Position numbers and translations under genes: made by a program. Positions 44,824 through 63,921 of a stretch of 64,000 nt of DNA are shown here, piece by piece. Source of the stretch: an uncultured delta proteobacterium (GTDB lineage: Bacteria; Myxococcota_A; Polyangia; Polyangiales; Polyangiaceae); NCBI GenBank assembly GCA_963841435.1, contig CAWJCS010000001.1, forward strand, positions 358,597-422,596, written 5' to 3'. Positions within the stretch are counted from its first letter, which is position 1; each line of letters starts with the position of its first letter. The notes beneath the pieces were generated by a model, which saw nothing but the letters and a program-made list of their open reading frames with translations, made no database searches and had not been told where the DNA came from.

Positions 44824-44903
44824 CGTTCACGTGCCACGAAAAATAGCGGCAAGAGCGGCCGGCGTCCATGGGTGGTTGCGAAAACACGCCACCGACGCCG
44901 CTC

Positions 44904-45543
44904 TCAGCGCACGAACTGAAAGCGATTCGATGCGTCGAAGAAACCGCCGGGGCCCAGGAGACGGAAGAAAACGGTCTCCGTGCAGCTGGTGCGGTCGACG
45001 GGCCCGAAGTCCCGCGAGTCGTAGGGAAAGCGGCGGTTGTCGCTCACGAGGAACACTTCGCCCGTATGGACGTTCGCCCTCGAAGGACTGAACGTCCGAA
45101 GTGGCGACGGCCTCCCCGCGCTCGTGGATCGTCCCGTGGGCGACCTCCATGGAGCAGCGCTGCTCCACGTCGCCCCCCTGCGGGGAGGTGACCGTGAACA
45201 CCGGACTCCCGCAGTCACCCTCCGAGCCGAACGGCTTTTCGTTCACGAAGATGCGCGACGCTTCCACCTTCACGTGGTCGCGCTCTTCGCCGATGAGCCG
45301 CCCAATGGTGATGCGGTCGGGGTGCCGTGGCTCCGGGCAGACGACGAGCGAGCCGAGCGCGGGCTCGGTGAGGCGCCAGAGCAGGAGCCAGTCGCCGCCG
45401 TGGAGGCTCGGCGCAATCGAAGCATCCAGCCAGGGATCGTCGTCCGGCACGTGCCACCACCGGATCGCGGTCACGCGGAGCGCGATGGTCATGACAACGA
45501 GCCCGACCAAGCTCCAGAGTAGCCACCGCCCGAGCGCCCGCAT
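44904..45543 (-). CDS. Signal peptidase I (S26)-like protein (frameshift at ~45073)
   Basis: N-terminal TM, SIAPSL..GD, GRLIG...D.V, VFLVSDNR....DSRDFGPV. Removing one base gives FEGDVHTGEVFLV. Confidence 0.8.
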
Positions 45544-45580
45544 CGGCTGAAGTTTAGCGGATCGGGATCGCCGCTTCCAA

Positions 45581-46486
45581 CTACTCACATTCGACGGGCG
45601 GGAGCTCGTTCGGGCTCATGCCCTGGACGACCAGCTCCGCCTGCGTGAAGAGGGGGCGCCAGGCGTCGATGCGGGTGAACTCCGCGCGGCCGAGCGTCTT
45701 GTCGCTCGCATCCATCACGGCGGCGGAGATCACGCCGACGATTTCGCCCGTGGCAAGATCCACGGCGGGGCCGCCCGAATCGCCGGGGCAAATGCTCGCA
45801 TCCAGGCGAAAGGTATGGTGGAAAAGCTTCTCGATGTTGCCGCCCTGCCGCACGGCGCGCCCTCCCGTGTTGGAGGTCCACACGCAGCGCCCGAAGCCGA
45901 TGGGCTCGATGGCGGCTCCGGCGATGGGTGGCGCGTTCAGGCGCGCGCCGCGCGTCGCGACGCCGACGAGCCGCCGCTCGAGTACGAGAATGGCGATGTC
46001 GCCGTCACCGGCCGCGTAGCCGCACGTCGGCGCCACGATCGCCCGCACCCCGACCTCACCCCACGCGAACGGATCGCCGCCGAGCTCGACGCTGACCGCC
46101 TCGATCGGCAGGTCCTTCGAGAGCATCTGCCCGTTCTCGTCGCGCTCGGCGAGGCAATGGTGCGCGGTGAGGACGCGCTCTTCGTCGAGCAGCGAGCCCG
46201 AGCAGGTTACGGAGCCCGCCACCACCCGGACCACGTAGTCCTCCGGCGTCGTCACGGCGAGAGGCAGGCCGAGCGGCACGGCGGGCTCGTCGACCTCACC
46301 GAACGCGGCCGGCGCCACCTTCGGCTCCTGCCCGGGCAGCTTCAAGCACCCGGCCGCGCCGATCGACGCGGCGCAGAGCAGCACGGCGGGCGGCAGGCTC
46401 TTCGCCCGGCGAGCGCGCGCCCCCGTCTGGCACTCCGAAGGAGGGCCGACGTTCCGGGCCACCTCACCCGCGGCTCGATCTTGCAT
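45581..46486 (-). CDS. Trypsin-like S1 serine protease (probable lipoprotein)
   Basis: CSGSLL....VLTAHHC, GDIAIL, CPGDSGGP catalytic triad motifs; AAGC lipobox. Confidence 0.9.
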   Translation of the reverse strand: MQDRAAGEVARNVGPPSECQTGARARRAKSLPPAVLLCAASIGAAGCLKLPGQEPKVAPAAFGEVDEPAVPLGLPLAVTTPEDYVVRVVAGSVTCSGSLLDEERVLTAHHCLAERDENGQMLSKDLPIEAVSVELGGDPFAWGEVGVRAIVAPTCGYAAGDGDIAILVLERRLVGVATRGARLNAPPIAGAAIEPIGFGRCVWTSNTGGRAVRQGGNIEKLFHHTFRLDASICPGDSGGPAVDLATGEIVGVISAAVMDASDKTLGRAEFTRIDAWRPLFTQAELVVQGMSPNELPPVECE

Positions 46487-47739: not shown

Positions 47740-50700
47740 TCACTCCGCGAGCGAAATCGCCTGCGCGCCGTCGTAGCCGAGCGAAGCGACGGCGGTGTCG
47801 CCCACGATGTCGAGATCCTGGACGTAGCCCGCGAGCTCCACCTCGCGCGACACGCGCGGTGCCTCGGGGTCGCTGGCGTTCACGACCACGAGCTTGCCGC
47901 GGAAGCCCGTGGAAAGCGCCGCGCTCGTGCCCCGGGCGACGAGCGGCACGTAGCCCCAGGTGTCGCCCGCCGGGATCTCGAGCCGGGCGCTCGTGAACGC
48001 CCCCGAGCTGAGGCCGGAGAGCACGACGAGCGACAACGAGCGGTCGTCGAAGCTCGACACGCCGTAGCCGCCGCCGATGCCGAAGTCGTTGTACCCGTAA
48101 TAATAGAAATAAGGGCGCCCGAGCGAGACGAACAGCCGATCGTCGCCGAGCGCCACGGCCGACACCCACTCGCCGGGGGCGAGCTGGGTGCGGTCCACGA
48201 CCGTCGAACGGTCAGCGTCGATCGCGAGCAGATAGAGCGTCTCCTGCGTGACGATGCAGGTGCCGCGCGTCTTTTCGTAGTTGACGGGCGTGACCGTGGT
48301 TTCGAAGCGGCCGGAGCCGTAGTCCGAATAGCACTGCTCCCACGTGAGCCCGTCGAAACGAAGATCGTGGTAGTCGGCCGTGATGGCATGGGAGGACTCG
48401 GCGTCGAAGGCGACGAGCGAGCCGGGGATGTTGACGGGCGGCAAGAGCGCGCTGCTCTTTCCCTGCTTCACCACGCGATCGAGATAGAAGCGCACGCGGC
48501 TCGTGCTCGTGCCGACGGCTTCGTAGTGGCTCGTCGCGATCACGTTGCCGCTCGAAACCAAGCCCGTGTACCCGAGCGCGCTCGGCGTCGCGAGCGTGCG
48601 CGTGACGGGCGCCTTCGGGTTCGCGAGATCGACGAGGTGAAGCTCGCCGGGCGCGGCAATGGGACCCTCGTTCCACGTTGGCGAGTGCGAGAAGAACGCG
48701 AGCGTCGAGCCGAGAGCCGCCGTTCCGGTACCGCTCTGCACGAGGCCGAGCGCCCCGCCGCCGTAGTACCAGCCGTAGTAGTACGTGGGCGTAAACTCGA
48801 GGGAGACCTCGCCGGCGACGGCGGGCGCGCGTGGGTCGGAAACGTTAACGGTGACGATGCGCGCGCCCTGAGCGGCCGTTTCGGTGTTCGGGTCGTAGCT
48901 GTAATAGTCGTAGACGAGGTACGCGTCGTTTCCGTTGGCACGCACGTCGCTCAGCCAGGACGAAGCGTAGCAGCTGTCGTCGGCCTTCTGCGGCAGCATC
49001 ACGCTGCCGAGCGCCACCGGCTTGCCGACGGCGTCGACGCCGGTCACGTCGAGCTCCTCGTTGTTGGTCCACCAGTTCTGGGTCACGCGAAGAACGCTGT
49101 CGCCGACCCCCGTGGTGTGCGTGACGTAGCGAGCGATCGGCAGATCGGCCGTCTTCGTCGGCGCGCCGCGATCGTCGATGTCGAAGCTCTCGACGCGATC
49201 GTCGCTCATGGCGAGCAGGCGACCGTCGTGGAGCAGCCCGCGGCGCGCCTGGCCGATCGAGGGCGCGATGCCACCGAGCGACAGGGCGTCATTGCTCCAG
49301 TCGACGAGCTGGATGCCCGATTGGTAGCTTCCCGCGTAGCAGCCCCCGGTGCTCGTGCTCGACGACCAGCCGGAGAACGGCACGAGAATCAGGCCGATGT
49401 CGTCCATGACGTTGAAAGCTTTTTGGATGCGATCCTGGTCCTCGGCGAGCGAGCCCCAGTCGCCGCCGAAGTTGACGCGCGAGAGCATGCTCGGCGTGGC
49501 GAGATCGCTCACGTCGAACAGCGAGACCGTGATGGCGCCCGCCTGGTTGCCCTGGTCGAAGCCGAGCCCGAGCACGCGATCGCCGCGCGGCTCGAGGTAG
49601 TAGAGCCAGCCGGGCATGGCGAGCTCGCCGACCTGACGCGGGCGCGCCGGGTCCGAAAGATCGATCGTGAAGAGCGGATCGGTCTGGCGGAAGGTGATGG
49701 CGTACGCGCGCGGCCCGTCGAAGCGCACCGTCTGCAAGGACTCGTTTTCGGGCAGCAGCAGATCCTCGGACGCGAGCGGCACGATCGACGACGACGAGTT
49801 GACGCGGAACGTCTCGACGGCGGGGACACTACGTTCGTTCCACGAAAACGGCTGACTGATGACGCGCAGCACGCCGTCCGTCTCGTCCATCTGCCAGCGG
49901 CTCGAGATCTGACCCGCCACGCCGACGGCGGCGCCGAGCACCATGTCGCCGCCCGGGTCGGAGATATCGATCACCTGGATCGTGCTGCCAACGGGCTGGT
50001 CCGGGCCCCATTCGGGGCCGCCCACGTAGAGGCGGTTCTCGGTCGAGGTGAGGCTCCGGTGCCACGAGTAGTTCTCGTCCTCGTCGAAGGAGAGCTCGTC
50101 GACCCTTCGCACGTCCGCCGGGTCACTCACGTCGAGCGAGATGAGGTTCGTCCTCGGCGCGGTACCGCAACCCCAGCAGTAGCCGTTCTCGTAGGCCGCC
50201 ACGTAGAGCACGTTGCCGACGATGCGCGAGTCCGAGATTTCCCCGCCGATCTCGAAGCGCGAGAGCTCCACCATGTTGGCGGGGTCCCGCGCGTCGATGA
50301 CGACGACGTAGCTGGTCTGAAAGTACGTCCACGTCTTCGCGGCGTCGTCGTACGCATAGTCGGCGTAGCCGTTGTAGAGCGCCGTCACGACGCCGGAGTG
50401 CACGTACATCTCGAACGGTGTCGCGACGATCTTGTGCGTGCCGAGCGGCTCGAGCCGGTCGCGCGTCCCTATGTCGATCACGCTGAGTCCGCCGTAGCGC
50501 GAGAGCGCGTACAGCCGGTCGTCCTCGATCTTGACGATGTCCGCTTCCTCGATGGTGCGCGCGGCGTCGGAGCCCTCGCCCGTGGTCGGAGCCGCCGTGG
50601 TGGTGCCGCCCGAGCTGGTCGAGCCGCCGGTCGCACTGGCGTCGACGCCGACGGCTCCGCCCGAGCCCGGGGACTGACTCGCGCCGTTCGGCAGGTCGGA

Positions 50701-50820
50701 CTCGAAGGTGCCGTTGTCCGCTGGCACCGGGTTTCCGGGGTTGCTACCGGCGCAGGCCGCCAGCCAGGTGGCGGGGGCGACGCAGAGCGCGAGACGAAGG
50801 ACGAGATGATGGCGGATCAC
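47740..50820 (-). CDS. Secreted beta-propeller domain lipoprotein (PF09826-like)
   Basis: LAAC lipobox; IEEADIVK, SRIVG..LYV, RWQMDE..G.LRV, VRFDG.RAYA.TF..TDPLF.IDLSDP, GEL.MPGW..YL. GTG start at 50820 with GGAGG RBS. Confidence 0.88.
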   Translation of the reverse strand: MIRHHLVLRLALCVAPATWLAACAGSNPGNPVPADNGTFESDLPNGASQSPGSGGAVGVDASATGGSTSSGGTTTAAPTTGEGSDAARTIEEADIVKIEDDRLYALSRYGGLSVIDIGTRDRLEPLGTHKIVATPFEMYVHSGVVTALYNGYADYAYDDAAKTWTYFQTSYVVVIDARDPANMVELSRFEIGGEISDSRIVGNVLYVAAYENGYCWGCGTAPRTNLISLDVSDPADVRRVDELSFDEDENYSWHRSLTSTENRLYVGGPEWGPDQPVGSTIQVIDISDPGGDMVLGAAVGVAGQISSRWQMDETDGVLRVISQPFSWNERSVPAVETFRVNSSSSIVPLASEDLLLPENESLQTVRFDGPRAYAITFRQTDPLFTIDLSDPARPRQVGELAMPGWLYYLEPRGDRVLGLGFDQGNQAGAITVSLFDVSDLATPSMLSRVNFGGDWGSLAEDQDRIQKAFNVMDDIGLILVPFSGWSSSTSTGGCYAGSYQSGIQLVDWSNDALSLGGIAPSIGQARRGLLHDGRLLAMSDDRVESFDIDDRGAPTKTADLPIARYVTHTTGVGDSVLRVTQNWWTNNEELDVTGVDAVGKPVALGSVMLPQKADDSCYASSWLSDVRANGNDAYLVYDYYSYDPNTETAAQGARIVTVNVSDPRAPAVAGEVSLEFTPTYYYGWYYGGGALGLVQSGTGTAALGSTLAFFSHSPTWNEGPIAAPGELHLVDLANPKAPVTRTLATPSALGYTGLVSSGNVIATSHYEAVGTSTSRVRFYLDRVVKQGKSSALLPPVNIPGSLVAFDAESSHAITADYHDLRFDGLTWEQCYSDYGSGRFETTVTPVNYEKTRGTCIVTQETLYLLAIDADRSTVVDRTQLAPGEWVSAVALGDDRLFVSLGRPYFYYYGYNDFGIGGGYGVSSFDDRSLSLVVLSGLSSGAFTSARLEIPAGDTWGYVPLVARGTSAALSTGFRGKLVVVNASDPEAPRVSREVELAGYVQDLDIVGDTAVASLGYDGAQAISLAE

Positions 50821-50844
50821 GTGGCTGCCTCCGCCCATCGGTAC

Positions 50845-50946: not shown

Positions 50947-51135
50947 ACGCCAGGGTTGGCACGGCGATCTGCGGGGCGACTGGCGCGGCGGGCTCCGAGG
51001 TCGGGCCCGCCGTGGTCCTTTCGGGCCGCCACGGCCGCTCGCGAGAGCGGGGCCGTGACCGGGCGCGCGCGGTGCGTCGAAAAGGGCGGGCGCGCTGTAA
51101 GATGCCGCGCTCTTCGCGTTAACGAAACGAACCGC

Positions 51136-52603
51136 ATGGCTTTTAGGATCCTTCGCTGGCTATCGCTCCCTGTCCTCGCGGCGGCGTTCGGCTGCTCGGG
51201 CGCGAAGCCGCCCGTCCGCGAGCTGCCGAGTGGCCCGGCGAGCCATCACGTGTCGGACGGCAAGGGGCGCGAGAAAGTCTCGATCACCGTCTACAACTCG
51301 AACTTCGGGCTCGTGCGCGAACAGCGGCGCATCTCGCTCGGCACGGGCAAGGTGGAGCTCGCGTTCGCCAACGTCTCGACGCAGATCCAGCCGGAGACGG
51401 TGCACCTCCGGAGCCTCACGCGCCCCGACGCGCTCACCGTGTTCGAGCAGAACTACCGCTACGACCTTTTGACGCCCGAGAAGCTGCTCGAAAAGTACGT
51501 CGGCAAAAAGGTCAAGGTCGTCCGCTACAACGAGAAGCTCGGCACGGACGAAACCAAGGAAGCCGACGTGCTCTCCGTCGAAGGCGGCGGCCCCGTGCTG
51601 CGCATCGACGGCGAGATCGTCACGGGTTTCCCGGGTCGCTTCGTGTTCCCGAACGTCCCCGCGAACCTCGTGGAAAAGCCCACGCTCGTGTGGCTGCTCG
51701 GTAGCGACCTCGCCGAGCAGCGCGTCGAGGTATCGTATCTGACGGCGAACCTAACCTGGCGCGCCGACTACGTGCTCGTGCTCGACGCGGCCGACACGCG
51801 CGGCGACCTCACGGGCTGGGTCACGCTCACCAACACCACGGGCACGAGCTACCCGAGTGCCGAGCTCAAGCTCGTCGCCGGCGACGTGCAGCGCGTGGCC
51901 CCGCCTCCGCCGCCCGAGGCGCCCATGCCCATGGAGAGCCTGCGGATGGCGGCGCCGGCGGCTCCGCAGTTTTCTCAAGAGTCTCTGTTCGAGTACCACC
52001 TCTACACGCTCGGCCGCCCGACGGACCTGCTCGACAAGGAGCAGAAGCAGGTGACCTTGCTCGAGGCGCACGGCATTCACGTCGAGAAGAAGCTCGAGTT
52101 TCGCGGCGCCGATTACTACTACCGCAGTCGGATCGGCGAGCTACCGAAGAATCAGAAGGTCAGCGTCTTCGTCGTGATCCAGAACCGCGAAAAAGAGGGC
52201 CTCGGCATGCCGCTGCCCAAGGGCACCTTGCGCGTCTACAAGGCCGATTCCGCGGGGGCGCAGCAGTTCGTCGGCGAGGACGCCATCGACCACACGCCGC
52301 GCGACGAGAAGCTCGAACGTCAAGCTCGGCGAAGCGTTCGACGTCGTCGCCGACCGCAAGCAGACCGACTTCAAGGTCTACGGCAACTGCTCGAGCGAGA
52401 GCGGCTGGGAGATAGCCCTCCGCAACCACAAGGACGAAATGGTCACGGTGGACGTGATCGAGCCCGCGAGCGGTGACTGGGAGATCGTTTCGGCGAGCCA
52501 CGCCGCGAAGAAAGAAGACGCGCAGACGTTCGTGTTCCACGTGGACGTGCCGGCGCGCGGAGAAACCAAAGTGACCTACCGAGTGAGGATCCGATGGTGT
52601 TGA
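51136..52603 (+). CDS. DUF4139 family lipoprotein (frameshift at ~52316)
   Basis: AFGC lipobox; ITVYN.NFGLVRE, EQNYRYDLL, W.ADY, L.GWVTL.N, LFEYHLYTL, LGMPLPKG. Removing one A joins KLDVKLGEAFDV...YRVRIRWC. Confidence 0.87.
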
Positions 52604-54030
52604 AACGCATGTGGAGCGCCGCGCTGTGCCTGGGCCTCGGGCTTTCGGGCGCGGGCCCTGCGCTCGCTGGCGCGCCGCCGAAGAAGGTGTCGGGCGACGC
52701 CGATCGCAAAACGGTGGGCATCACCGTGTATAACCAAGGCTTCGGCCTCGTGCGCGAGGTGCGCGAGCTCAAGGATCTCGGCACCGGCAAGGTAGAGCTC
52801 GAGTTTCGCGACGTTGCCGCAACGATTCAGCCCGAAACGGTAGCCGTGAAGCCGCTCGTTGGGAGTCTGCGCGTGCTCGAGCAGAACTACCGTTTCGACC
52901 TTCTGACGCCCGAGACGCTGCTCAACAAATACGTCGGCCGGAACGTGCGTGCGTATCGCTATCACGAGGCCACGGGCCGCGAGGACGTCGTCGACGCAAA
53001 GCTCTTGTCGATGGCGAACGGTCCCATCTTGCAGATCGGAAAAGAGATCACCTTCGGCTATCCGGGGCGCCTCGCCTTCCCCGAGCTGCCGCCCGATCTC
53101 ATCGCCAAGCCGACGCTGGTCTGGCTGGTGGACAGCGGGCAGCCCAAGCAAACGCTCGAGGTGAGCTACCTGGCGCAGGGGCTCTCGTGGCAGGCCGACT
53201 ACGTGTTCGTCGTCAACGACAGCGACACCAAGGGCGACCTCGTTGGCTGGGTCACGCTGCAGAACCAATCGGGCACGAGCTACCGCGACGCCGAGCTCAA
53301 GCTCGTCGCGGGCGACGTGAACCGCGTCGAGGAGCAGACCATGGCGCGCGCGGCGAAGAGCCGCATGGTCACGATGGACGAAGCGGGGGGGGCCGGCTTC
53401 AAGGAGGAGGGCCTCTTCGAGTACCACCTCTACACGCTCGGCCGCCCGACGACGGTGCTCGACAAGGAGCAAAAGCAGGTGACCTTGCTCGAAGCGCAGG
53501 GCATCGGCATCGAGAAGAAGCTCATCTTCTTCGGCCAGCAGTACTGGTACCGAGGGCAGTACGGCGAGCTCCAGAAGAACCAGAAGATCGGCGTGTTCCT
53601 CGACTTCAAGAACTCGGAGGCGAACCGCCTCGGCATGCCGCTCCCGAAGGGCACGCTTCGCGTCTACAAGGCCGACAAGAGCGGCTCCAAGCAATTCGTG
53701 GGCGAGGACAGCATCGACCACACGCCACGCGACGAGAAAATCCGCGTCAAGATGGGCGAAGCGTTCAACGTCGTCGGTGACCGCAAACAGATGGAGTGGC
53801 GCGCGCTCGGCAGCTGCGTCTCCGAATCCGCCTGGCAAATCGAGCTCCGCAACCACAAGGACGAAGCCGTGAAGGTCGAAGTCCGCGAGCCCGTCGGCGG
53901 AGACTGGACCATCATCTCCTCGAGCCACCCCGCCAAAAAAGAAGACGCCTTCACCTTCACATTCGACGTCCCCATCCCCAAGCGCGGCGAAACGAAAGTC
54001 ACGTATCGCGTCCGCGTGCGGTGGTGCTAG
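52594..54030 (+). CDS. DUF4139 family secreted protein (tandem paralog)
   Basis: Signal peptide; same motifs as the upstream gene; ends YRVRVRWC. Confidence 0.9.
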   Translation: MVLKRMWSAALCLGLGLSGAGPALAGAPPKKVSGDADRKTVGITVYNQGFGLVREVRELKDLGTGKVELEFRDVAATIQPETVAVKPLVGSLRVLEQNYRFDLLTPETLLNKYVGRNVRAYRYHEATGREDVVDAKLLSMANGPILQIGKEITFGYPGRLAFPELPPDLIAKPTLVWLVDSGQPKQTLEVSYLAQGLSWQADYVFVVNDSDTKGDLVGWVTLQNQSGTSYRDAELKLVAGDVNRVEEQTMARAAKSRMVTMDEAGGAGFKEEGLFEYHLYTLGRPTTVLDKEQKQVTLLEAQGIGIEKKLIFFGQQYWYRGQYGELQKNQKIGVFLDFKNSEANRLGMPLPKGTLRVYKADKSGSKQFVGEDSIDHTPRDEKIRVKMGEAFNVVGDRKQMEWRALGSCVSESAWQIELRNHKDEAVKVEVREPVGGDWTIISSSHPAKKEDAFTFTFDVPIPKRGETKVTYRVRVRWC

Positions 54031-54234: not shown

Positions 54235-57200
54235 ATGGGGCAGGTGGTGGGTAAGGGATCGCGTCTCGAGTCCGGAGCGGAAAGTCCGGCGGTTCCTGGA
54301 CGCGGAGGAAGCGGAAAGGGAACGGGCACGCGCGGAATCATTCCGGTGTTGGGCCTCATTGCAGCGGGAATCGCGCTAGCGGGCTGCTCGCGAGAGGCGC
54401 CCAAGCAAGACGAGCCCGTCGCCACGTCGCAGTCCGCTCTGTTCGACCGTGATGACCCGTACGTACGGCTTCGAGAGCCTGCTCGACTGGTCCGCCATCT
54501 ACTCGAGCCCGACGCTGGCGCTCTCGAACACGCACGTGGAGGGGACGAAGTCGCTCTCGGTGAGCGGGGGCGGCTGGTCGAGCGTCATCAGCCGGACGCT
54601 CTCGAAGGAAGAGTCCGCGCCGACGGTGGTCGGCTTCGACCTGATGATCCCGACGAGCCAGCCGAACCCCGACTGGTACGGCACCGTGATGCTGTTCATC
54701 GACGTGCCGAGCCGCGGCATCAACAACCAGCCGCTCGGGCTGCACGATTTGAAGCAATGGACGCCAGGCGTGTGGCACCGCGCGGAGTTCGGTGTGCCGG
54801 CGGCGATCCAGACGGCACTTTCCCAGAGCTATTCGGACCTGCGTTTCCGCATCGAGCTCAACCGCCCAGGGAACGCGACGGGGCCCTACCTCTTCGATCG
54901 CTTCGTGTTCGGCCCCTTCAATCCAACCTGCATACCGATGGACGACGGCAACCCGTGCACCACCGACATGTGCGACGCGAACGGCCAGCCGCAACACGTG
55001 CCGGTCGCCGCAGGCACCAGCTGCTCGGACGGGAACGCCTGCAACGGCGCCGAGACCTGCAACGCAACGGGCTCGTGCACCGCCGGAAGCCCGGTCGTCT
55101 GTACGGCGCTCGACCATTGCCACGATGCCGGCACCTGCAATCCGGCGACTGGAGCGTGTTCGAACCCCACGAAGCCGGACGGCACCTCGTGCAGCGACGC
55201 GGATGCCTGTACCCAGACCGACACGTGCCAGGCGGGCACCTGCACCGGCCAAAACCCGGTCGCCTGCGCCGCCCTGGACCAATGCCACGACGTGGGAAGC
55301 TGCAACCCATCCACCGGCGTGTGCTCGAACCCCGCCCGCCCGGACGGCACCGCCTGCAGCGACGGCAGCGCGTGCACCGTGGGCGACGCGTGCCAGACCG
55401 GCGCCTGCGTCGCCGGCACGGCACCACCCGTCGAACGATGGCAATCCTTGCACCACCGACGCCTGCGACCCGATCGCCGGCGTCACCCACACGCCGGTCG
55501 CAACCGGCACGAGCTGCTCGAACGGAGACGCCTGCGACGGCGACGAAACCTGCGACGCGAGCGCGGTGTGCGTCGCCGGCGCCCCGCCGGACGCGAACGA
55601 CCAAAACCCCTGCACCGACGACAGCTGCGACCCGGTGACGGGCGTCGCGCACACGCCGACTGCGGCCGGCACCCTCTGCCTCGACGCCAACGTCTGCAAC
55701 GGCGGTGAAACGTGCGACGGCGCCGGCGCCTGCCAAGCGGGCACGCCGCTCGTCCTCGACGACGCCAACACCTGCACCGCCGACACCTGCGACCCAACGC
55801 TCGGCGTGAGCCACACGCCAGTCGCCGCCGGCACGGACTGCTCCGATGCCGATCAGTGCAACGGAAGCGAAGCGTGCGACGCGGCAGGCACCTGCACGGC
55901 GGGCACACCCCCGACGACCGACGACGGCAACCCCTGCACCGCCGACGCCTGCGACCCCGTCACGGGCGTGAGCCACACCGCGCTCGCCGCCGGAACGACC
56001 TGTGCCGACGCCGACCAGTGCAACGGCGCCGAGACCTGCAACGGCGCGGGCGCCTGCACGTCCGGCACGCCACCAGCGGTCGACGACGGCAACCCCTGCA
56101 CCGTGGACGCCTGCGACCCGGTCACGGGCGTCAGCCACACCCCCGCCGCCGCCGGCACCACCTGTGCCGACGCCGACGTCTGCAACGGCGCCGAGACCTG
56201 CAACGCCACCGGCGCCTGCCAACCCGGCACTCCCCTGGACGTCGACGACGGCAACCCCTGCACCGCGGACGCCTGCGACCCGCTCACGGGCGCCACGCAC
56301 ACCCCCGTCGCAACGGGGACCAGCTGCGCCGACGCCGACGTCTGCAACGGCGCCGAGACCTGCGACGGCACCGGCGCGTGCACGGCCGGCACAGCGCTCG
56401 ACGCCAACGACCAAAACCCCTGCACCGACGACGCGTGTGACCCGGTCAACGGCATCACTCACACCCCGAGCACCGCCGGCACCCTCTGCCTCGACGCCAA
56501 CGTCTGCAACGGCAGCGAAACGTGCGACGGCGCCAGCGCCTGCCAATCCGGCACCCCCCTCACGCTCGACGACGGCAACCTCTGCACCGCCGACGCCTGC
56601 GACCCGACGCTCGGCGTCAGCCACACACCCGTCGCCCCCGGCACCAGCTGCGCCGACGCCGACGTCTGCAACGGCGCCGAGACCTGCGACGCCGCAGGCA
56701 CCTGCGCCTCCGGCACCCCGCTGACCGTCGACGACGGCAACCCGTGCACCGCGGACGCCTGCGACCCGATCAACGGCGTCTCGCACACCCCCGTCACCGC
56801 CGGCACGAGCTGCACGGACGCGGACGTCTGCAACGGCGCCGAGACCTGCGACGGCACCGGCACCTGCACCCCCGGCACCCCGCTCGAGCTTGACGATCAG
56901 AATCCCTGCACCGCGGACGTGTGCGACCCGATCAACGGCGTGAGCCATACGCCCATGGCCTCCGGCACGAGCTGCGCCGACGCCGACGTCTGCAACGGCG
57001 CCGAGACCTGCGACGGCGCCGGTACCTGCACACCCGGAACCCCCCTCGACCTCGACGACCAAAACCCCTGCACCGCCGACGTCTGCGACCCGGCCAACGG
57101 CGTCTCGCACACCCCCGTCACCGCCGGCACGAGCTGCGCCGACGCCAACGTCTGCAACGGCGCCGAAACCTGCGACGGCGCCGGCACCTGCACCCCCGGC

Positions 57201-60200
57201 ACTCCGCTCGACTCCAACGACCAAAACCCGTGCACGGACGACGCTTGCGACCCCGTCAACGGCGTCACTCACACCCCGAGCGCTGCCGGCACGCTCTGCC
57301 TGGATGCCAACGTCTGCGACGGCAGCGAAACCTGCGACGGCGCGGGCGCCTGCCAACCCGGCACCCCCCTCCCAGTCGACGACGACAACCTCTGCACCGC
57401 CGACGCCTGCGACCCGACGCTCGGCATCCAGCACGACCCCGTTTCCGCAGGCACGAGCTGCAGCGACTACGACCAATGCAACGGCGCCGAGACCTGCGAC
57501 GCCACGGGCGTCTGCCAGCCCGGAACCCCGGTGCCGATCGACACGACGAACCCCTGCAGCATCGGCAGCTGCGACCCTCTGACGGGAGTCGTCACCTACA
57601 ACCCCACGCCCGCCGGCACCGACTGCTTCCTCGACGCCTGCACCCTCGCCACCTGCAACGGCTCCGGCGAGTGCACGGCGTCGGGCTCGAACATAGAGGA
57701 CGACGGCGATCCCTGCACCATCGAGTGGTGCGACCCCGTCCTCGGCCCCCAGGTGAAGAGCTGCAGCGCCATCGACCCCACCGTGGGCACGACGCTCCAC
57801 GAATCGATGAAATGGATCTACGAGCAGCCGAACCCGGTGCAGGTCGGCGTTGCGCCAGGGACCATCGTGGTCGAGCGTGCGGCGCTCATCAGCGGCATTG
57901 TGACCGCACGCGACAGCTCCGTGTTGCCTGGAGTACGCGTAACGATCTTGAACCATCCCGAGTTCGGCTACACCACGAGCAGGGTCAACGGCCACTTCGA
58001 CATGGTCGTCAACGGCGGAGGGGATCCTCGTGGCGCAATACGAGAAGCCAGGCTACCTCGACGTTCAACGCCCGATCACGACCGTGTGGGGCGAGTACGT
58101 GACCGCCCCCAACGTCGTCATGATCACGTCCGACCCGGTGGTGACGCCAATCGACTTGACGAACCAATCCGCAGCTTTCCAGGTTGCGCAAGGTAGCGTG
58201 CAGACTGATGCAGACGGTTCCCGGAGGGGCACCGTGCTGGTCCCCTCTGGGACCCAAGCAACGATGGCGGTACCCGGAGGCGGGTCGGTTCCCCTGGCGG
58301 CGATGAACGTGCGGATCACCGAATTTACGGTCGGCGATAACGGTCCGGACGCGATGCCGGGCACGCTGCCGCCCGAAAGCCACTACACCCACGCCTTCGA
58401 GGTCAACGCCGACGAGGCCATCGCCGCGGGGTCGTCCGGGATCACCTTTTCGACGCCACTCGTGTATTACGTCAACAACTACCGGCAGTTTCCGGTTGGG
58501 ACGCCCGTTCCATTCGGTTCCTACGACAAGGGCACCGCCGTCTGGAACGCTGAAGAGACTGGTATCGTCTTGGAGATCGTCGGGGAAGCGGGTGGCCTCG
58601 CCGACGTCAACGTCACCGGCGATGGCCTCGCGGACACGGGTGCCGCCCTGGCCGCGTACGGCATCACGGACGCCGAGCGAGGACAAATGGCTTCGCTGTA
58701 CGCGGTCGGACAAACGCTATGGCGTGTCCGATTCAGCCACGCGACGCCGTTCGACTGCAACTGGCCGATACGGTGTGATGACTGCCCCGACCCGAACAAT
58801 ACGCCGCTGCCCGATCCGGATCCGCAGGACCCCTGCCAGTCGGGCGGCTCGATTATCGAGTGCGAAACCCAGGTGCTCAAGGAGCGGATCGCCGTCGCGG
58901 GAACTCCTTTCTCATTGAACTACGCTAACAACAGAACACCCGGCCGGAGGACCACCTATCAGGTGACCGTTCCACCGATTCCCCGAACCATGTCCCTGCT
59001 CTTCTCGAAAGCGGAGGCGACCTTGGGGTCGCGCCGGCTTGCAACTTGGCTTGCCGATCCCAACGACACCTCCAGCGTCACCGTGCAGTGGGACGGCAAG
59101 GACGCATTCGGCAGAACGCTCCAGGGTGCGCAGGCGCTCTCCGTTAGCGTCTTTGCGGGATACGGCGGTTGCTATGTTCGTCCGTCGGGTGGCTGGGCCC
59201 AAAGTGGAGAGCAAACTTGTTACTCCGGACAAATTACCATCTGGCGACAACGACATTGGACGGTTCCGATCGGCGCATTCGATCCTCGACCACTCGGTCT
59301 CGGCGGGTGGACCCTGGATGTGCACGACGTCTACGAACCCGCGCTCGAGCGGCTTGAGCTGGGGAATGGGGACCGCCAGATCCAGTCTGCAATGCCACGC
59401 GTGATCAAGCAGCAGTTTCCCAAACCTGGGACGACGACGTCGATCGGGGTTGGGCCGAGCATTGCGACCGCCCCAGACGGTTCGATCTACTTCACGAACG
59501 GTGAGAGCATTCGGCGCACCACGGCAACCGGGTCGGTTCTGGTCGCGGGAAATGCCAATAGCTCTGGTTTCGCCGGCGACGGCGGTCTCGCCTCCGATCC
59601 AAGCGTCCGCTTCAACAACATCCGAGATCTCGAGCTCGGCCCAGACGGCTCCCTCTACATCGCGGATCACTTGAACCATGCGTTGCGAAAGATCGGAACC
59701 GACGGCATCTTGCGTACGGTCGCTGGCGTTGGTGGCACGCAGGGTCACACGGGTGACGGCGGCCCGGGAACCCAGGCGCTGATCGACAGGCCGAACTCGA
59801 TTGCGGTGGAACCCGGCGGAGCCGTTTATTTCGTCGAACTGGACAGGACCATCCGAAAACTGTCGCCGGATGGCATCATCACGACCATTGCGGGCGTGTC
59901 TCCATACATCGGCTGCACTCCGCTGCTGCCGCCCGACGGTTCCGTCGCCAAACAGACAATCTTGTCGCCGGAGACCCTCGCGATCTCGCCCAATGGGGTG
60001 CTGTACGCGGGAATCGCGACAGATACTTCCGCTTGCGGCTCTGGCGGGCTGAATAGGATCATTCGGATCGAGAACGGTCAGATCTTCCACGTGGCCGGGC
60101 AAGGTTGCGCATCCACGAGCGCATCTTGCCAAGCGCGACTCATTGACGGGCTCGACGCTAAGCAAGCAGCGGTCTCGCCGGTTGGCCTCGCTTTCGACAA

Positions 60201-63200
60201 GTATGGCCAGCTCTACTTCGCTGCTGCTAGCTCTTGTCTCGCGCCCGCCCTCGATGCTCCCTGCAATCGCATTCGAACGATCGACTCGCAGAACATCGTG
60301 AGAACCGTGGCCGGAAACCTGGAGGGGAACGGCCCGACCTTCTACGAGGGAGCCCTCGCTCCGTACGCCCAGGCCAATACCAGGGTCTGGCGATCTGCGG
60401 CGATGGCTCTTTCTGCGTTCCCGTCAGCGGCGGACTGGGCAGCCTGCTCAAGCTGACCTCGCCATTGCCATCCGAAAGCGGAGCAGCCTTCGCGATTGGT
60501 TCCAAATCGGGCAACGAAATCCTCGCCTTCGATCAGCTCGGCCGTCATCTCTCGACGAAGGACGCGATGACGGGCGCCAACGTTTACCGCTTCGACTATG
60601 GCGTCGGGCACACGCTGTCAGCCATAACCGACCGCGCTGGACAGGTGACTCAAATCGAGCGCGATGCGACCGGGACGCCGACGGCCATCGTGGGTCCGTT
60701 CGGCCAGCGGACGGCGCTCTCCCTCGATGCGAACGGCTACCTTCAGGAGATCCGCGACCCTGAAGGCAATTCCACCACGATGACCTACCAGAACGGCCTG
60801 CTCACGAGCATGACGAACGGCCGCGGCGAAACGAGCACGATGAGCTACGACGCTCTCGGAAGGCTCGCGCTCGATGCGGACGCTGCTGGCGGCTACCAGC
60901 AACTCTCCCAATCCGGCGACTACACCGACTGGAGCGTGTCGCGCAGCACCGCCCTTGGTCGCACCACGACATACCAAACCCAGATCCTGCCGGACTCCGT
61001 GGGCGTCTCGCGAACCGTAACGACGCCCGATCTCCTGCAACAGACGAGCGCGGACACACCCGAGTTCCTGAAACAAAACTCACTCGCCGACGGAACTCAG
61101 ATCAGCGTGGCCAAGAATTCCGACGCTCGCTTCGGTCTGGTCTCGCCGATCGAGTCTCGCACGACCGTCCTGCCGTCGGGCTTGACCTCCGTCGAAGCCA
61201 ACGCCCGCCAATTCACCTCGTTGAACCCCAACGACCCCTTGGACTTCCTGGCCATGGCGAGCACGCGCGTCCTGAACGGACGAACCTGGACCACCAACTA
61301 CGTCAAGTCGAGCCGCACCTTCACGGACGTCACCCCCGTCGGCCGCACCACCACGCGCATCATCGACACGCTCGGCCGCACGACGCGCACCCAAGTGACC
61401 GGCCTCGCGCGCATGGACTACCAATACGACACGAACGGCCGCCTCCTTCGAACCATCCAGGGCACCGGAACCCTCGCCCGCACGACGGACTACGGCTACG
61501 TCCCGAGCGGCTCCTCGGCTGGCTACCTCCAAAGCATCACCGACGCGCTCACCGTCCCGACCACCTACGGCCGAGACGCCCTCGGCCGCACCCTGATCGA
61601 AACGCGCGCCGGAGCCACGACGGGCTTCACCTGGGACCCCGTGAGCAACCTCGCGACGGTCACGCCCCCCGGCAGACCCACCCACGGCATGACCTACACG
61701 CCCGTGGACCTGCTGGAAACCTACGCCCCACCCCCCGCCGGCCTGCCCGCTGCGAGTACGAGCTACACTTACGACCTCGACCGCATGCTCCGCACGGAAA
61801 CCCGCCCCGACGGCGTGCAAATCGTCAGGACGCCCGACAGCGCCGGCCGCCTCGACACCGTCCAAATCCCCGGCGGCATGCTCGACTACGCGTACTACCC
61901 GCCCGGGACCCCGAGCGGAGCTGGCAAGACGAGCGACATCCTCGGGCCGTACGGGACCAACCTGCACTTCACGTACGACGGCATGCTCACGACGCAGACG
62001 ACGTGGAGCGGCAACGTCACGGGCAGCGTCGCCTGGCAGTACAACACGGACTTCAACAAGATCCTCGAGACCGTGACGGGCGCGAGCGGCACGGCGCAGA
62101 CGGTGTTCGGCTACGACAACGACCAATTGCTCACGTGCGCTTCACCGGTGAGCTGCGCGGCACGTCCGCGGCCAATGCGCTCCGGCTCACGCGGAGCGCG
62201 CAGAATGGCCTCATCACGGGGATCGCGCTCGGCAACACGACGGAGACGCTGTCGTACAACACCTTCGGCGAGCTCGCGCGGCAGACGGCGCAGTACTCGG
62301 CGACGCCGCTCGCCGACATCACGTACGACGCTGCGGGCGTCGAGCGGGACAAGCTCGGGCGGATCGTGCAGAAGACGGAGGTGCTGGGGTCACGAAGGTC
62401 TACCAGTACACGTACGACGCGCTGCGGCGGCTGACGGACGTGACGATCAACGGGGTGCTCGATGAGCACTTCGAGTACGACGCGAACGGCAACCGGACGG
62501 CGGGGTACAAGGCGGGGCGCGGCACTTGGACGGGGACGTACGACGACCAGGACCGGTTGCTGAGCTACGGGCCGTAGGTGTTTACGTACACGGCAAATGG
62601 GGAGATGGAGACGAAGACGGATACGTCCACGGGGGAGGAGTGGATGTTCCAGTACGATGCGCTCGGGAATTTGCTGACCGTGGGGTTGCCGAATGGCGAC
62701 TTGGTGGAGTACTTGGTGGACGGGATGGGGCGGAGGGTCGGGAAGAAGAAGAACGGGGTGCTGCTGAAGCAGTGGGTGTATCGGGATGCGCTGAAGCCGG
62801 TGGCGGAGCTCGATGGGGCGGGTGCGCTCGTGGCGGAGTACGCGTACGGGTCGAAGGGGAACGTGCCGGATTACGTGGTGCGGGGGGCGCGACGTACCGC
62901 GTTGTGAGCGACCATCTGGGGTCGCCGCAGGTACGTGGTGAACGTGGACGAGTCGGCGATGTGCCGTTCAGTGCGGGCTACTCGGCGTTTGGCGAGGTGA
63001 CGGGGGCGGGGCTCGATTGGATGCCGTTTGGGTTTGCGGGGGGGATTTATGATGGGGACAGCGGGTTGATACGGTTCGGGGCACGCGACTACGACGCCGT
63101 GGTTGGGAGATGGACGGCGAAGGAGCCGCTCCGCTTCCTGGCGGCGGACAACTTGTACGTCTACGTCCTCAACGACCCGGTGAACTTTCTCGGTTCAACC

Positions 63201-63461
63201 GGACTCAATCCTCAGGGGGCCGGGGGCGACCCGGGATCGGGCGAGGGTGGGAGTCGGGGAACCGACAGTGGACCTGCGCCGAATCAGCCCGGGCGTCCCG
63301 CGACCTGCTCCGAGTGCAAGGCCATCGCATACTCCTTTTTCGCGATATGTGGCAAGACGGCGGGGTCTTGCCCACCGCCGGTGAACGTCCCGGGCATAGG
63401 TGTATGCGTTTGGATGTTCAAACAACTGAATGACACCTGCAACAAGCGCTACTGCTGGTGA
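54235..63461 (+). CDS. Giant teneurin-like YD/RHS repeat lipoprotein (~3,000 aa; interrupted here by ~8 indels and one TAG)
   Basis: Stitched from ORFs 54235, 54449, 54792, 58030, 60234, 62003, 62578 and 62526. Order: LAGC lipobox; CBM-like domain; Cys-rich repeats; ISGIV..RD...LPGVRVTIL.HPEFGYT.SR.NG.FDMVVNGGG; LGLGGWTLDVHD.Y; NHL repeats (GPDGSLYIAD, GDGG); YD repeats; FGARDYD..VGRWT.K.P...NLY.YV.NDPVN RHS core. Confidence 0.88.
55500..57610 (+). repeat. 13 tandem 162-bp (54-aa) Cys-rich repeats
   Basis: C(N/D)G.E.C motif recurs at 55533, 55695, ... 57477 with an exact 162-bp period; unit C.DA.VCNGAETCD..G.C..GTP...DD.NPCT.D.CDP..GVSHTP...GT. Confidence 0.92.
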
Positions 63462-63921
63462 CCAAGCATCGCGTCTACTCGTTCTTCAGCGTCGCCGTGT
63501 TGGTCTTTGTGGCCATTCGCAACTCGGCAGCGACTGTCGCCTATCGGAGCAGGGCCTGTGGTTGGAGCAGTGCTATCTCGGGCGCTCTCCAAGCGCCGAT
63601 GGCATGCGAGACCCTGGTTGCTCTTCCTACTTGTTCTCACGTTGTACCCGGTAGCGAGCTGGCTCTTGGAGCACTCCGGTTCCAGCGCTGTCGATCCGTT
63701 CGTGGCGGTCTGTGCGGTGGTCGTGGGCGCATCGGCCGGCTCGACTCCTGGCCCGTCATCCAAAGAGACCTTCGGAGCGCGCGAATTTTTTGGCACTAGC
63801 TATGATCGGAGCGCTTGTTCGCGGCACGGTCGCTCCCCATAGTTTCCTCCCCTTGGCGCTAGTTCCCCTCGGCATTGCAACCGCAATCACGCTGCACGGA
63901 TACCTGCGGAAGTGGCGTTGA
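63458..63921 (+). CDS. Small multi-pass membrane protein, candidate immunity protein (two apparent frameshifts)
   Basis: GTG overlaps the TGA of the RHS gene. Hydrophobic segments lie across ORFs 63458, 63507 and 63712 (VYSFFSVAVLVFVAI; PWLLFLLVLTLYPVASWLL; PFVAVCAVVVGA; FLALAMIGALV; FLPLALVPLGIATAITL). Lower GC than the window. Confidence 0.55.

Follow-up and report, generated by a model that had tools for sequence, protein, structure and literature searches.

Gene locus and domain order

The window, i.e. the whole 64-kb stretch of DNA analysed here, is the terminal 64 kb of contig C1, and the gene under study ends 540 nt before the contig end. It comprises 3,075 codons and encodes, from the N- to the C-terminus, a lipobox, a CBM-like beta-sandwich, a Cys-rich stalk of 54-residue repeats, TTR-like, TIP, FN-plug and NHL domains, a YD shell, an RHS core and a Cys-rich tail (Table 1). 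In tblastn searches it was collinear from end to end with three intact proteins of the same genus (2,633, 2,822 and 2,819 residues). A single-protein search named only two full-length relatives, both from uncultured MAGs.

Table 1. Features of the teneurin-like protein (TLP) locus, in window coordinates
Feature	Position	Strand	Basis or description
TLP gene	54235-63461	+	start ATG 54235, stop TGA 63459-63461
N-terminus, frame 1	54235-54441	+	long n-region, hydrophobic core, lipobox IALAG-C
Frameshift 1 (frame 1 to 2)	54442	+	one surplus base
CBM-like beta-sandwich	54446-54949	+	AF2 and Foldseek; no Pfam/NCBIfam family
Cys-rich stalk	54950-57710	+	Dicty_CTDC, TRF, repeat listing; frameshift 2 near 55431
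Teneurin TTR-like domain	57873-58125	+	PF25020; broken by frameshift 3 near 58018 (run of four G)
TIP-equivalent domain	58126-58745	+	alignment of profile A1 to 9ifo_A
FN-plug	58746-59440	+	A1 alignment to 9ifo_A, C...G-S site, GLGGW.L..HH motif
NHL beta-propeller	59440-60480	+	PF25021, AF2, Foldseek; frameshift 4 near 60372 (run of three G)
YD/RHS shell	60480-63170	+	phmmer, RHS_repeat, TEN_YD-shell
RHS-associated core domain	62964-63206	+	TIGR03696
C-terminal tail	63207-63461	+	Gly/Ser-rich linker and ~55-residue segment with 7 Cys, then TGA
Small downstream ORF, candidate immunity gene	63549-63839	+	97 codons from GTG, two hydrophobic stretches

Predicted lipoprotein anchor, CBM-like domain and Cys-rich stalk

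An earlier note on this DNA had described a lipobox, a CBM-like beta-sandwich and Cys-rich repeats, and all three were recovered. The lipobox IALAG-C is located at 54370-54387, with the Cys codon at 54385-54387 and Ser at +2; in a pattern-level test, the hydrophobic core followed by L-A-G-C corresponds to a Sec/SPII-type signal. A comparable lipobox is present in same-genus homologues, also in P0126 and P0127, and was seen by eye in 24 of 25 homologous genes. The AF2 model of the beta-sandwich (A2) reached a pLDDT of 82.7 and a pTM of 0.81. Its top Foldseek matches were CBM27, CBM22 and CBM4 (E about 1e-5 to 4e-6, TM 0.5-0.6), further matches included lectins and reelin, and searches of Pfam and NCBIfam found no family for this domain.

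The stalk has a length of about 1,000 residues and contains 110 Cys in total. Its frame 2 part encodes one unit of the 54-residue type and two variant units, followed in frame 0 by 13 regular 54-residue units with six Cys each (55443-57548) and a degenerate 14th. Pfam Dicty_CTDC matched the stalk in 13 stretches with an E-value of 2.4e-61, and TRF reported a period of 162 nt in 12.8 copies at the DNA level. With 203 bits, the Dicty_CTDC score was the highest found, compared to at most 133 bits in the 26 relatives scanned. For the stalk, searches of NCBIfam and of the PDB sequences gave no match, and Pfam did not match EGF repeats on any piece of the gene.

Teneurin-like superfold

PF25020 (TTR_TEN1-4) was detected with an E-value of 1.8e-11 and 44.2 bits (cut-off 27); the match runs over positions 4-51 of the profile (86 in all) and stops where the reading frame is broken. 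Two motifs had been assigned to the FN-plug before. The segment G.V..RD...L.GV.V...FG.T.SR..G.FD.VVNGG proved to be part of the TTR-like domain, whereas GGWTLDVH (59302-59325) does belong to the FN-plug, which lies downstream, and is found in its end part. Among the 26 homologous open frames of relatives, 25 contain the TTR domain and nine Dicty_CTDC.

The TIP domain is used as defined for bacterial TLPs (PMC13018210); its equivalent was delineated with profile A1, which spans TIP, FN-plug and NHL and is not a separate TIP model. Positions 3-469 of A1 align to residues 449-931 of 9ifo_A with 588.7 bits, the TIP-equivalent part starting at residue 449 of BiTLP. In the PDB comparison, A1 matched the teneurin-like protein entries 9ifo_A and 9pt5_A best (E=0, 1028 bits), followed by teneurins 2, 3 and 4 with about 1e-64 to 1e-73. 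Within the FN-plug, CQSGG-SIIEC (58834-58863) aligns with the self-cleavage site C719...G723 / S724 of BiTLP (PMC13018210). The window piece gave no match to the Pfam family FN-plug_TEN1-4, which was found in three of the 26 homologues (L016, L040 and L043). For NHL, claimed earlier as a propeller and six-bladed in bacterial TLPs, PF25021 (TEN_NHL) gave 66.5 bits (cut-off 27.1) and an E-value of 2.7e-18. The AF2 model of the TIP/FN-plug/NHL piece has mostly high pLDDT for residues 1-240 and is mostly confident for residues 480-765, while the FN-plug part was modelled poorly (residues 245-310 and 385-478 < 50). The top Foldseek match of this model was 9ifo_A with an E-value of 6.3e-25, at low TM-scores (0.30/0.18), followed by 12 teneurin entries.

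The YD piece was compared by phmmer and matched 9ifo_A with an E-value of 1.3e-60 (query 7-589, chain 1233-1807), ahead of teneurins and of T6SS Rhs proteins. RHS_repeat scored 60 bits on this piece, and TEN_YD-shell scored 43.5 and 26.8 bits on separate pieces, which is below the cut-off of 50. The RHS core was recognized by TIGR03696 with 57.3 bits (cut-off 32.5) and is followed by a short C-terminal region. The teneurin relatedness, the YD shell and the RHS core, all named in the earlier note, are borne out, and a short tail lies where the note placed a payload.

Interrupted reading frames

A single ORF of ~3,000 aa had been expected. One collinear gene is indeed encoded here, but it is not an ORF, since it is interrupted by about nine frameshifts and one TAG, probably assembly errors. 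The coding path was followed by GC3 tracking, stop-to-stop frames and tblastn against intact homologues and runs through frames 1>2>0>1>0>2>1>0, with shifts near 54442, 55431, 58018, 60372, 62158, 62385 and 62881 and a compensating pair near 62925/62960, 36 nt apart. The in-frame TAG occupies positions 62575-62577, where the homologue P0007 has Trp.

Mechanical calling returned five separate ORFs across the gene, as would be expected if the segments were separate genes for a lipoprotein, a repeat protein, an NHL protein and an Rhs protein. Every junction, however, falls inside a domain or repeat which continues in the next frame, collinear with intact single-ORF homologues, and separate intact homologues of the pieces were seen in none of 41 genomes. 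A division into separate genes is scarcely credible.

Most likely, the frameshifts and the TAG arose where the consensus of a long-read-type assembly went wrong within the contig's final 10 kb, because the contig end is near, the lesions crowd towards it, indels tend to fall in G runs, the surplus base at 54442 is absent from an otherwise identical contig and the sole nuo stretch of the genome is equally broken. The distances of the lesions to the contig end are 9.6, 8.6, 6.0, 3.6, 1.8, 1.6, 1.4, 1.1, 1.1 and 1.0 kb. At least four of the nine indels are located at runs of three or more G, including a run of four at 62385 and of six at 62881. Sequencing run X1 contains 6% of the sampled words at a depth of 2-3 and leaves most of the gene uncovered, a gap that counts neither for nor against errors; two of the ten lesion sites are covered, and one (54442) could be checked with an identical contig. 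This 261-nt contig (depth 2.6) is identical over 54294-54555 except for the absent base 54442. The X1 contig at 62881 is roughly 93% identical and has one more G behind 62881; it is attributed to a relative because 11 of 150 bases differ. In the same assembly, nuoB, nuoC, nuoD and nuoH carry at least seven frame breaks which split single Pfam domains, and the broken nuoB-H stretch is the genome's only Complex1_49kDa (nuoD) locus. A Peptidase_S26 gene in the window is likewise split.

Against an origin as errors, just one of the ten lesions is checked by an identical contig, and this X1 contig, lacking the base at 54442, could derive from another strain.

Alternatively, the gene could be a true, recently inactivated TLP pseudogene, with indels, TAG and the disappearance of a catalytic Asp from the RHS core all being real mutations. 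Rhs-type and other polymorphic-toxin genes often decay, and substitutions such as the TAG and the Asp-to-Gly exchange are less typical of long-read indel errors. The ten lesions within 9.2 kb (about one per kb) also compare to about one clear case in the remaining 54 kb of the window, where five candidates were tested, and a second TLP gene of this genome, on contig C2, has one frame break in mid-contig. Against decay stand the missing insertion in the identical contig, the rise of the lesions towards the contig end, the preference of the indels for G runs and the equally dense patch in the sole nuo operon. Furthermore, neither codon bias (GC3 0.85-0.95) nor homology is weakened in any piece of the gene. 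A pseudogene is accordingly considered unlikely. Programmed frameshifting or phase variation was rejected in view of the nine unlike sites, the compensating pair and the equal damage in nuo. We conclude with good confidence that the region is one TLP gene of a type common in Myxococcota, that its frameshifts and TAG most likely are consensus errors and that, this being so, the organism itself probably carries the gene in intact form.

Relationship to known systems

The locus is genuine but unremarkable as a representative of the bacterial teneurin-like toxin proteins, a family that has been described before. TLPs were described by Raoelijaona et al. (Nat Commun 2026; PMC13018210) and are common in Myxococcota, where they are predicted SPII lipoproteins with adhesion modules, among them Dicty_CTDC, that vary at the N-terminus; polymorphic toxins form their C-termini, with immunity genes downstream. 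For bacteria, the FN-plug/NHL/YD class goes back to Jackson et al. 2018 (PMC5851990). Like BiTLP (Bacillus inaquosorum, 9IFO/9PT5) and the Myxococcota TLPs, the gene combines TTR, TIP, FN-plug, NHL, YD shell, RHS core and a short, putatively polymorphic C-terminal domain in this order. The conserved Cys...Gly-Ser site in the FN-plug and Dicty_CTDC among the N-terminal modules are shared with bacterial TLPs, as is the SPII lipobox, which is predicted for the Gram-negative members. In contrast to other TLPs, the gene has an unusually long and regular stalk, an unnamed CBM-like domain adjoining the anchor, an RHS core with two degenerate Asp-Pro motifs and a small tail that is rich in Cys and seldom found; in the assembly, it is also broken. 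Same-genus genomes contain up to six TLP loci, whereas four were reported.

The TTR/FN-plug/NHL/YD superfold is shared with animal teneurins (chicken Ten2 6FB3, human Ten4 7BAM; A1 E-values as above), and in both cases a membrane anchor at the N-terminus and a disulfide-rich spacer precede it. A lipid serves as the anchor here and a type II transmembrane helix in teneurins, and the spacer consists of Dicty_CTDC-type repeats here and of EGF repeats there. Moreover, the TIP domain is present, the bacterial-type self-cleavage motifs are partly degenerate, and no Pfam match to ABD or Tox-GHH was found on any piece of the gene. With EGF likewise unmatched and a lipobox as anchor, membership among the metazoan teneurins was rejected.

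A YD-repeat shell with an RHS core enclosing a variable C-terminal domain is also known from T6SS Rhs effectors and the TcB/TcC cocoons of Tc toxins (RhsA 7Q97, Tse5 8CP6). The YD piece, however, matched these with E-values of 1e-5 to 1e-12, compared to 1e-60 for the TLP. A PAAR or VgrG partner is lacking here, as is any TcA or TcB part, FN-plug/NHL forms the plug of the shell, and export is predicted to proceed by Sec as a lipoprotein. PAAR (PF05488), for which the earlier note had remarked an absence nearby, had no match in the whole genome (95% complete), and an N-terminal SPII lipobox is unfit for T6SS export. Membership among the T6SS Rhs effectors was consequently rejected, and this reading of the whole gene is regarded as next to impossible.

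Proposed function and C-terminal region

By analogy to the published family, the Sec pathway would export the protein, which would then receive its lipid and be sorted to the outer membrane, and the disulfide-rich stalk would hold the plugged YD shell off the cell. The shell may enclose the C-terminal domain, which would be directed at neighbouring bacteria as a polymorphic toxin or as a recognition tag, and a small downstream gene would provide immunity. Export, surface exposure, cleavage and toxicity of the protein are thus predicted properties.

The tail has about 84-85 residues and a GC3 of 0.71, compared to 0.85 in the shell. Two metagenome proteins, P0006 and P0007, share 71-77% identity with it. 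A search of 301 genomes of the order gave, besides the window, three weak matches (E 3e-5 to 4.6e-4); the small Cys-rich tail is rare within the order. Pfam and NCBIfam contained no family for it, and in a metagenome scan with the C-terminal piece, the matches covered the common RHS core only (query residues 1-86) and none extended to the Cys-rich tail. Variable C-termini, which a survey of homologues had been proposed to reveal, were found: Ntox33, TseH-like and DUF6973 tails occur in relatives. The 97-codon ORF downstream had no family match, and a codon-trained HMM scores the region as non-coding; as an immunity gene, it is a very uncertain candidate because it lies inside the error-prone final 500 nt of the contig.

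In the RHS core, both Asp-Pro motifs occur in degenerate form, namely as KEPLRF (63120-63137) and NDPVNFLGSTGL (63171-63206). At the two positions of the DPxG-X18-DPxG aspartyl protease motif, the gene reads EPLR (motif 1) and GSTG (motif 2). EPLR also replaces DPxG in P0007 and P0008. The relatives are intermediate, with EPLR / DPTG in P0007 and DPIG / DSTG in P0006. The Gly in motif 2 was found in this stretch alone among the compared relatives, and the motif sequence may contain errors because it is located 0.8 kb from the contig end.

If the aspartyl dyad is lost, the small Cys-rich tail would stay attached, and the protein could be a non-cleaving TLP acting as an adhesin or kin-recognition molecule in the manner of animal teneurins. 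The degenerate motifs shared in part with P0006, P0007 and P0008 are consistent with this, as are the small size and conservation of the tail and the absence of the aspartyl motif from mammalian teneurins (PMC13018210). On the other hand, P0007 keeps a canonical second motif (DPTGL) and P0006 its Asp, the unique Gly falls in an error-prone stretch, Glu may stand in for Asp, and the N-terminal Gly-Ser cleavage motif is retained. An uncleaved adhesin is hence judged quite unlikely. A related conjecture, which we rate as very unlikely, is that this gene together with P0006 and P0007 forms a small TLP subclade with an eroding RHS aspartyl dyad (Glu in motif 1, Ser/Gly in motif 2) and a payload shrunk to a seven-Cys knot of ~55 residues. 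If true, these TLPs would be moving from a cleaved caged toxin to a surface molecule which stays uncleaved, serves recognition in the style of teneurins and is displayed on a disulfide stalk of exceptional length.

Significance

The layout of anchor, stalk and shell, put forward earlier as a mirror of the animal arrangement, does exist in this gene, with lipobox and Cys-rich stalk preceding the superfold; it is not a discovery, as it is published (PMC13018210). The discovery value is little because the architecture and the proposed role appeared in February 2026, and the degenerate cleavage motif of the RHS core and the rare small Cys-rich tail are the sole oddities of the gene. For annotation, the lesson is that local consensus errors would cause a TLP gene of this size to be missed or split into five ORFs, and other such patches exist in the same assembly, including its only nuo operon. 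For the TLP family, the locus adds a member whose stalk repeats a 54-residue unit fourteen times with great regularity, an unnamed CBM-like module beside the anchor and evidence for a larger number of TLP loci in genomes of this genus than reported.

Reading frame of the TLP gene

The teneurin-like protein (TLP) gene (window 54235-63461, plus strand) had been described as one ORF once its indels are repaired. It is not one ORF as it stands: mechanical ORF calling gave five overlapping ORFs in three frames. GC3 was 0.85-0.97 in the coding frame vs. ~0.5-0.65 in the others and traced a single coding path with repeated frame changes. Stop-to-stop translations located the points at which meaningful protein sequence is handed over between frames, and the path was confirmed by tblastn with three intact proteins from the same genus and the closest metagenome proteins. 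The last segment also contains two shifts that compensate each other, near 62925 and 62960; the intervening homologous peptide YVVNVDES is read in frame 1. An in-frame TAG is present at 62575-62577, where the related metagenome protein P0007 has Trp. In total, the 3,075 codons contain roughly nine indels and a single nonsense codon.

Coding segments of the TLP gene and neighbouring features (window positions)
Feature	Position	Strand	Frame
coding segment	54235 to ~54442	+	1
coding segment	~54442 to ~55431	+	2
coding segment	~55431 to ~58018	+	0
coding segment	~58018 to ~60372	+	1
coding segment	~60372 to ~62158	+	0
coding segment	~62158 to ~62385	+	2
coding segment	~62385 to ~62881	+	1
coding segment	~62881 to TGA at 63459-63461	+	0
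97-codon ORF	63549-63839	+	
DUF4139 gene, first	50956-52476	+	
DUF4139 gene, second	52594-54030	+	
Beta_propel protein gene	47740-50838	-	
Peptidase_S26 gene	44827-45588	-	

Origin of the frame breaks

The breaks are most probably an artefact. The window makes up the final 64 kb of contig C1, with the TLP gene ending 540 nt short of the contig end. The lesions lie 9.6, 8.6, 6.0, 3.6, 1.8, 1.6, 1.4, 1.1, 1.1 and 1.0 kb from this end, their density climbing toward it as would be expected with dwindling read depth. Runs of three to six G's contain at least four of the nine indels, and two-base runs contain others. The TAG and an Asp-to-Gly change in the RHS motif, however, are substitutions, and the genome's second TLP gene, on contig C2, has one break in mid-contig; both points favour a true pseudogene with real breaks, which we consider unlikely. 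Codon bias and homology are undiminished in all pieces of the gene. The only public run with any of this DNA was a soil metagenome (Logan contigs, depth 2-3), covering two of the ten lesion sites. One contig of 261 nt equals 54294-54555 exactly except that base 54442, the site of the first frameshift, is missing, and a 151-nt contig from a relative (11 differences) has one extra G behind 62881. The run speaks for an artefact, although the check at 54442 depends on a single shallow contig, of which another strain might be the source.

The assembly of this genome (G000) is good overall, with 156 high-GC3 ORFs of at least 1,000 residues, three of them exceeding 3,400, yet it contains patches of dense frame breaks. 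In a nuoB-H stretch (G000:C6:1177001-1184000), at least seven frame changes were found, across which single Pfam domains run on in profile order (NuoB, NuoC, NuoD in three pieces, NuoH in three pieces); the domains split are Oxidored_q6, Complex1_30kDa, Complex1_49kDa and NADHdh. This stretch holds the sole Complex1_49kDa (nuoD) locus of a 95%-complete genome and identifies a region of low consensus quality, which again argues against a pseudogene. Genome-wide, a codon-trained HMM gave 488 frame-break candidates, which are unvalidated and clustered; the nuoB-H stretch is the cluster examined here. Of five other candidates in the window, three lacked Pfam support, one was ambiguous and one was a clear split, the Peptidase_S26 (signal peptidase I) gene. 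Its frame breaks near 45075, with profile positions 7-100 and 129-167 in different frames. Further candidate clusters, with up to 11 per 10 kb, were noted in the last ~60 kb of G000:C4 (850-905 kb), at ~400 kb of C6 and at ~52 and ~805 kb of C2.

Domain architecture

In frame 1 the N-terminus opens with a long n-region, followed by a hydrophobic core and then by the lipobox IALAG-C (Cys codon 54385-54387) with Ser at +2. No Pfam or NCBIfam family matched the following 168 residues, which form a beta-sandwich in AF2 (pLDDT 82.7, pTM 0.81; alignment of six sequences); the closest solved folds were carbohydrate-binding modules (CBM27, CBM22, CBM4, CBM28), along with lectins and reelin repeats (E ~4e-6 to 1e-4, TM 0.5-0.6). 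A 54-type unit and two variant units open the Cys-rich stalk in frame 2. Behind them come thirteen regular units, each with exactly 54 residues and six Cys, and then a fourteenth that is degenerate; the DNA period is 162 nt with ~74% matches. The units were assigned to Dicty_CTDC by Pfam (E 2.4e-61), and the stalk had no match to solved structures by sequence.

The observation in the earlier note is largely correct, apart from the broken frames and the motif labelled FN-plug, which is the teneurin TTR-like domain instead (PF25020, E 1.8e-11) and is split in two by the frameshift at 58018. An alignment of the 784-residue frame-1 piece (TIP, FN-plug and NHL) with 13 homologues was used as query. 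The best matches, with E=0 and 1028 bits, were 9ifo_A and 9pt5_A, in which the teneurin-like protein of Bacillus inaquosorum (BiTLP) was solved by cryo-EM; animal teneurins came second (~1e-64 to 1e-73), far above generic NHL proteins. The alignment spans BiTLP residues 449-931, i.e., TIP and FN-plug, and CQSGG-SIIEC of the TLP gene aligns to BiTLP C719...G723|S724, described in PMC13018210 as self-cleavage site and disulfide Cys. In the AF2 model of the piece (mean pLDDT 68), residues 1-240 and the propeller are good and much of the FN-plug is poor. In Foldseek, 9ifo_A was the best match to the model (E 6.3e-25), with twelve teneurin entries behind it; the low TM-scores (0.30/0.18) are not surprising for a piece made of several domains joined by floppy linkers. 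The YD piece matched 9ifo_A over its full length (E 1.3e-60); its matches to teneurins were weaker (1e-12 to 1e-17), and those to T6SS Rhs proteins weaker again. An RHS-associated core was also detected (TIGR03696, 57.3 bits).

C-terminal tail and downstream ORF

The tail comprises 84 residues, a Gly/Ser linker followed by ~55 residues with seven Cys. This tail is 77% and 71% identical in the metagenome proteins P0006 and P0007, with a distant copy in P0013; a search of 300 further genomes of the order gave three weak matches only. Because GC3 is 0.85 in the shell but only 0.71 in the tail, we infer a swapped cassette. Canonical TLPs carry DPxG-X18-DPxG according to PMC13018210. The corresponding RHS-core motifs are EPLR...GSTG in the TLP gene, EPLR...DPTG in P0007 and DPIG...DSTG in P0006. 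Since the TLP gene has the Glu of EPLR in common with P0007 and the Ser of xSTG with P0006, these are shared variants; among the three, the Gly of GSTG is confined to the TLP gene's own unreliable stretch.

Directly 3' of the TLP stop, the 97-codon ORF (GTG start) matched no family. It lies in low-confidence sequence, has two hydrophobic stretches and may encode a small membrane immunity protein.

Relatives and genomic neighbourhood

Matches to the frame-1 piece were found in 23 of 41 genomes (own, same genus and same order), many in open frames of 1,900-2,870 residues. In a domain scan of 26 homologous frames, TTR_TEN1-4 was present in 25; the frame lacking it covers only the C-terminal half of a gene that is split. 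TEN_YD-shell occurred in 23, an NHL family in 22 and Dicty_CTDC in nine. Three frames carry named toxin tails (Ntox33, TseH-like, DUF6973). By eye, a hydrophobic stretch closed by [A/G/S]-Cys was seen at the start of 24 of 25 genes, the remaining one lying outside the displayed part. The CBM-like domain of the TLP gene also occurs, straight after the lipobox, in three loci of the same genus (L016, L017, L037) and in the metagenome proteins P0126 and P0127. Protein-database entries for named relatives read Polyangiaceae bacterium or are deltaproteobacterial MAGs, which makes the taxon presumed in the earlier note plausible.

L016 (G018:C151) and L017 (G004:C109), from two species-level genomes of the same genus, have 6.5 kb in common at 96.3% DNA identity, comprising the last ~1.3 kb of the TLP genes, the tail and a downstream 1,096-residue primase-like ORF; the 5' 6-7 kb of the two genes gave no blastn match. 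The common stretch is either a mobile-element toxin-end cassette or a contig shared through binning. Six separate full-length TLP-type loci were counted in the same-genus genome G015 (C135, C32, C15 twice, C21, C100) and five in G004, both MAGs with 5-6% contamination; PMC13018210 gives a maximum of four copies per genome.

The second TLP gene of G000 (C2:388000-402000, minus strand) has the lipobox LLVAA-C besides its one frame break. A short Asp/Cys-rich motif, CDNGADDDHDG...CDDLDC, lies immediately N-terminal to its TTR domain, which was confirmed, and a HEAFH motif in its tail suggests a zinc metallopeptidase. Just 5' of the TLP gene in the window are two tandem DUF4139 genes, the first of which may change frame near 52314. 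The minus strand of the window also has a gene for a 1,032-residue Beta_propel protein. Nothing evident links these neighbours to the TLP gene.

Relation to the published family and proposed mechanism

The only literature found on myxobacterial TLPs was Raoelijaona et al. 2026 (PMC13018210). It reports TLPs from six phyla and more than 20% of Myxococcota species. According to the paper, 96% of TLPs have a TIP domain, and Gram-negative members have SEC/SPII signals and are anchored as lipoproteins. Their N-terminal adhesion modules vary (Dicty_CTDC is named in the legend of Supplementary Fig. 1c), their C-terminal toxins are of ~15 kDa, and the immunity genes lie downstream. The bacterial FN-plug class was defined by Jackson et al. 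2018 (PMC5851990). The interpretation in the earlier note, a lipid-anchored protein with the animal teneurin layout, was right but not new; its central inference is already in print, and the TLP gene is a further case of a known family.

With domain order and family membership established, a mechanism can be proposed from the published family and general lipoprotein biology. The protein would be exported by Sec, lipidated at Cys51 and transferred to the outer membrane, the stalk disulfides being formed in the periplasm. The CBM-like domain would sit beside the anchor and the plugged YD shell at the distal end of a long, rigid spacer. The C-terminal domain would be caged by the shell and released onto neighbouring cells by some trigger, and kin would be protected by the downstream gene.
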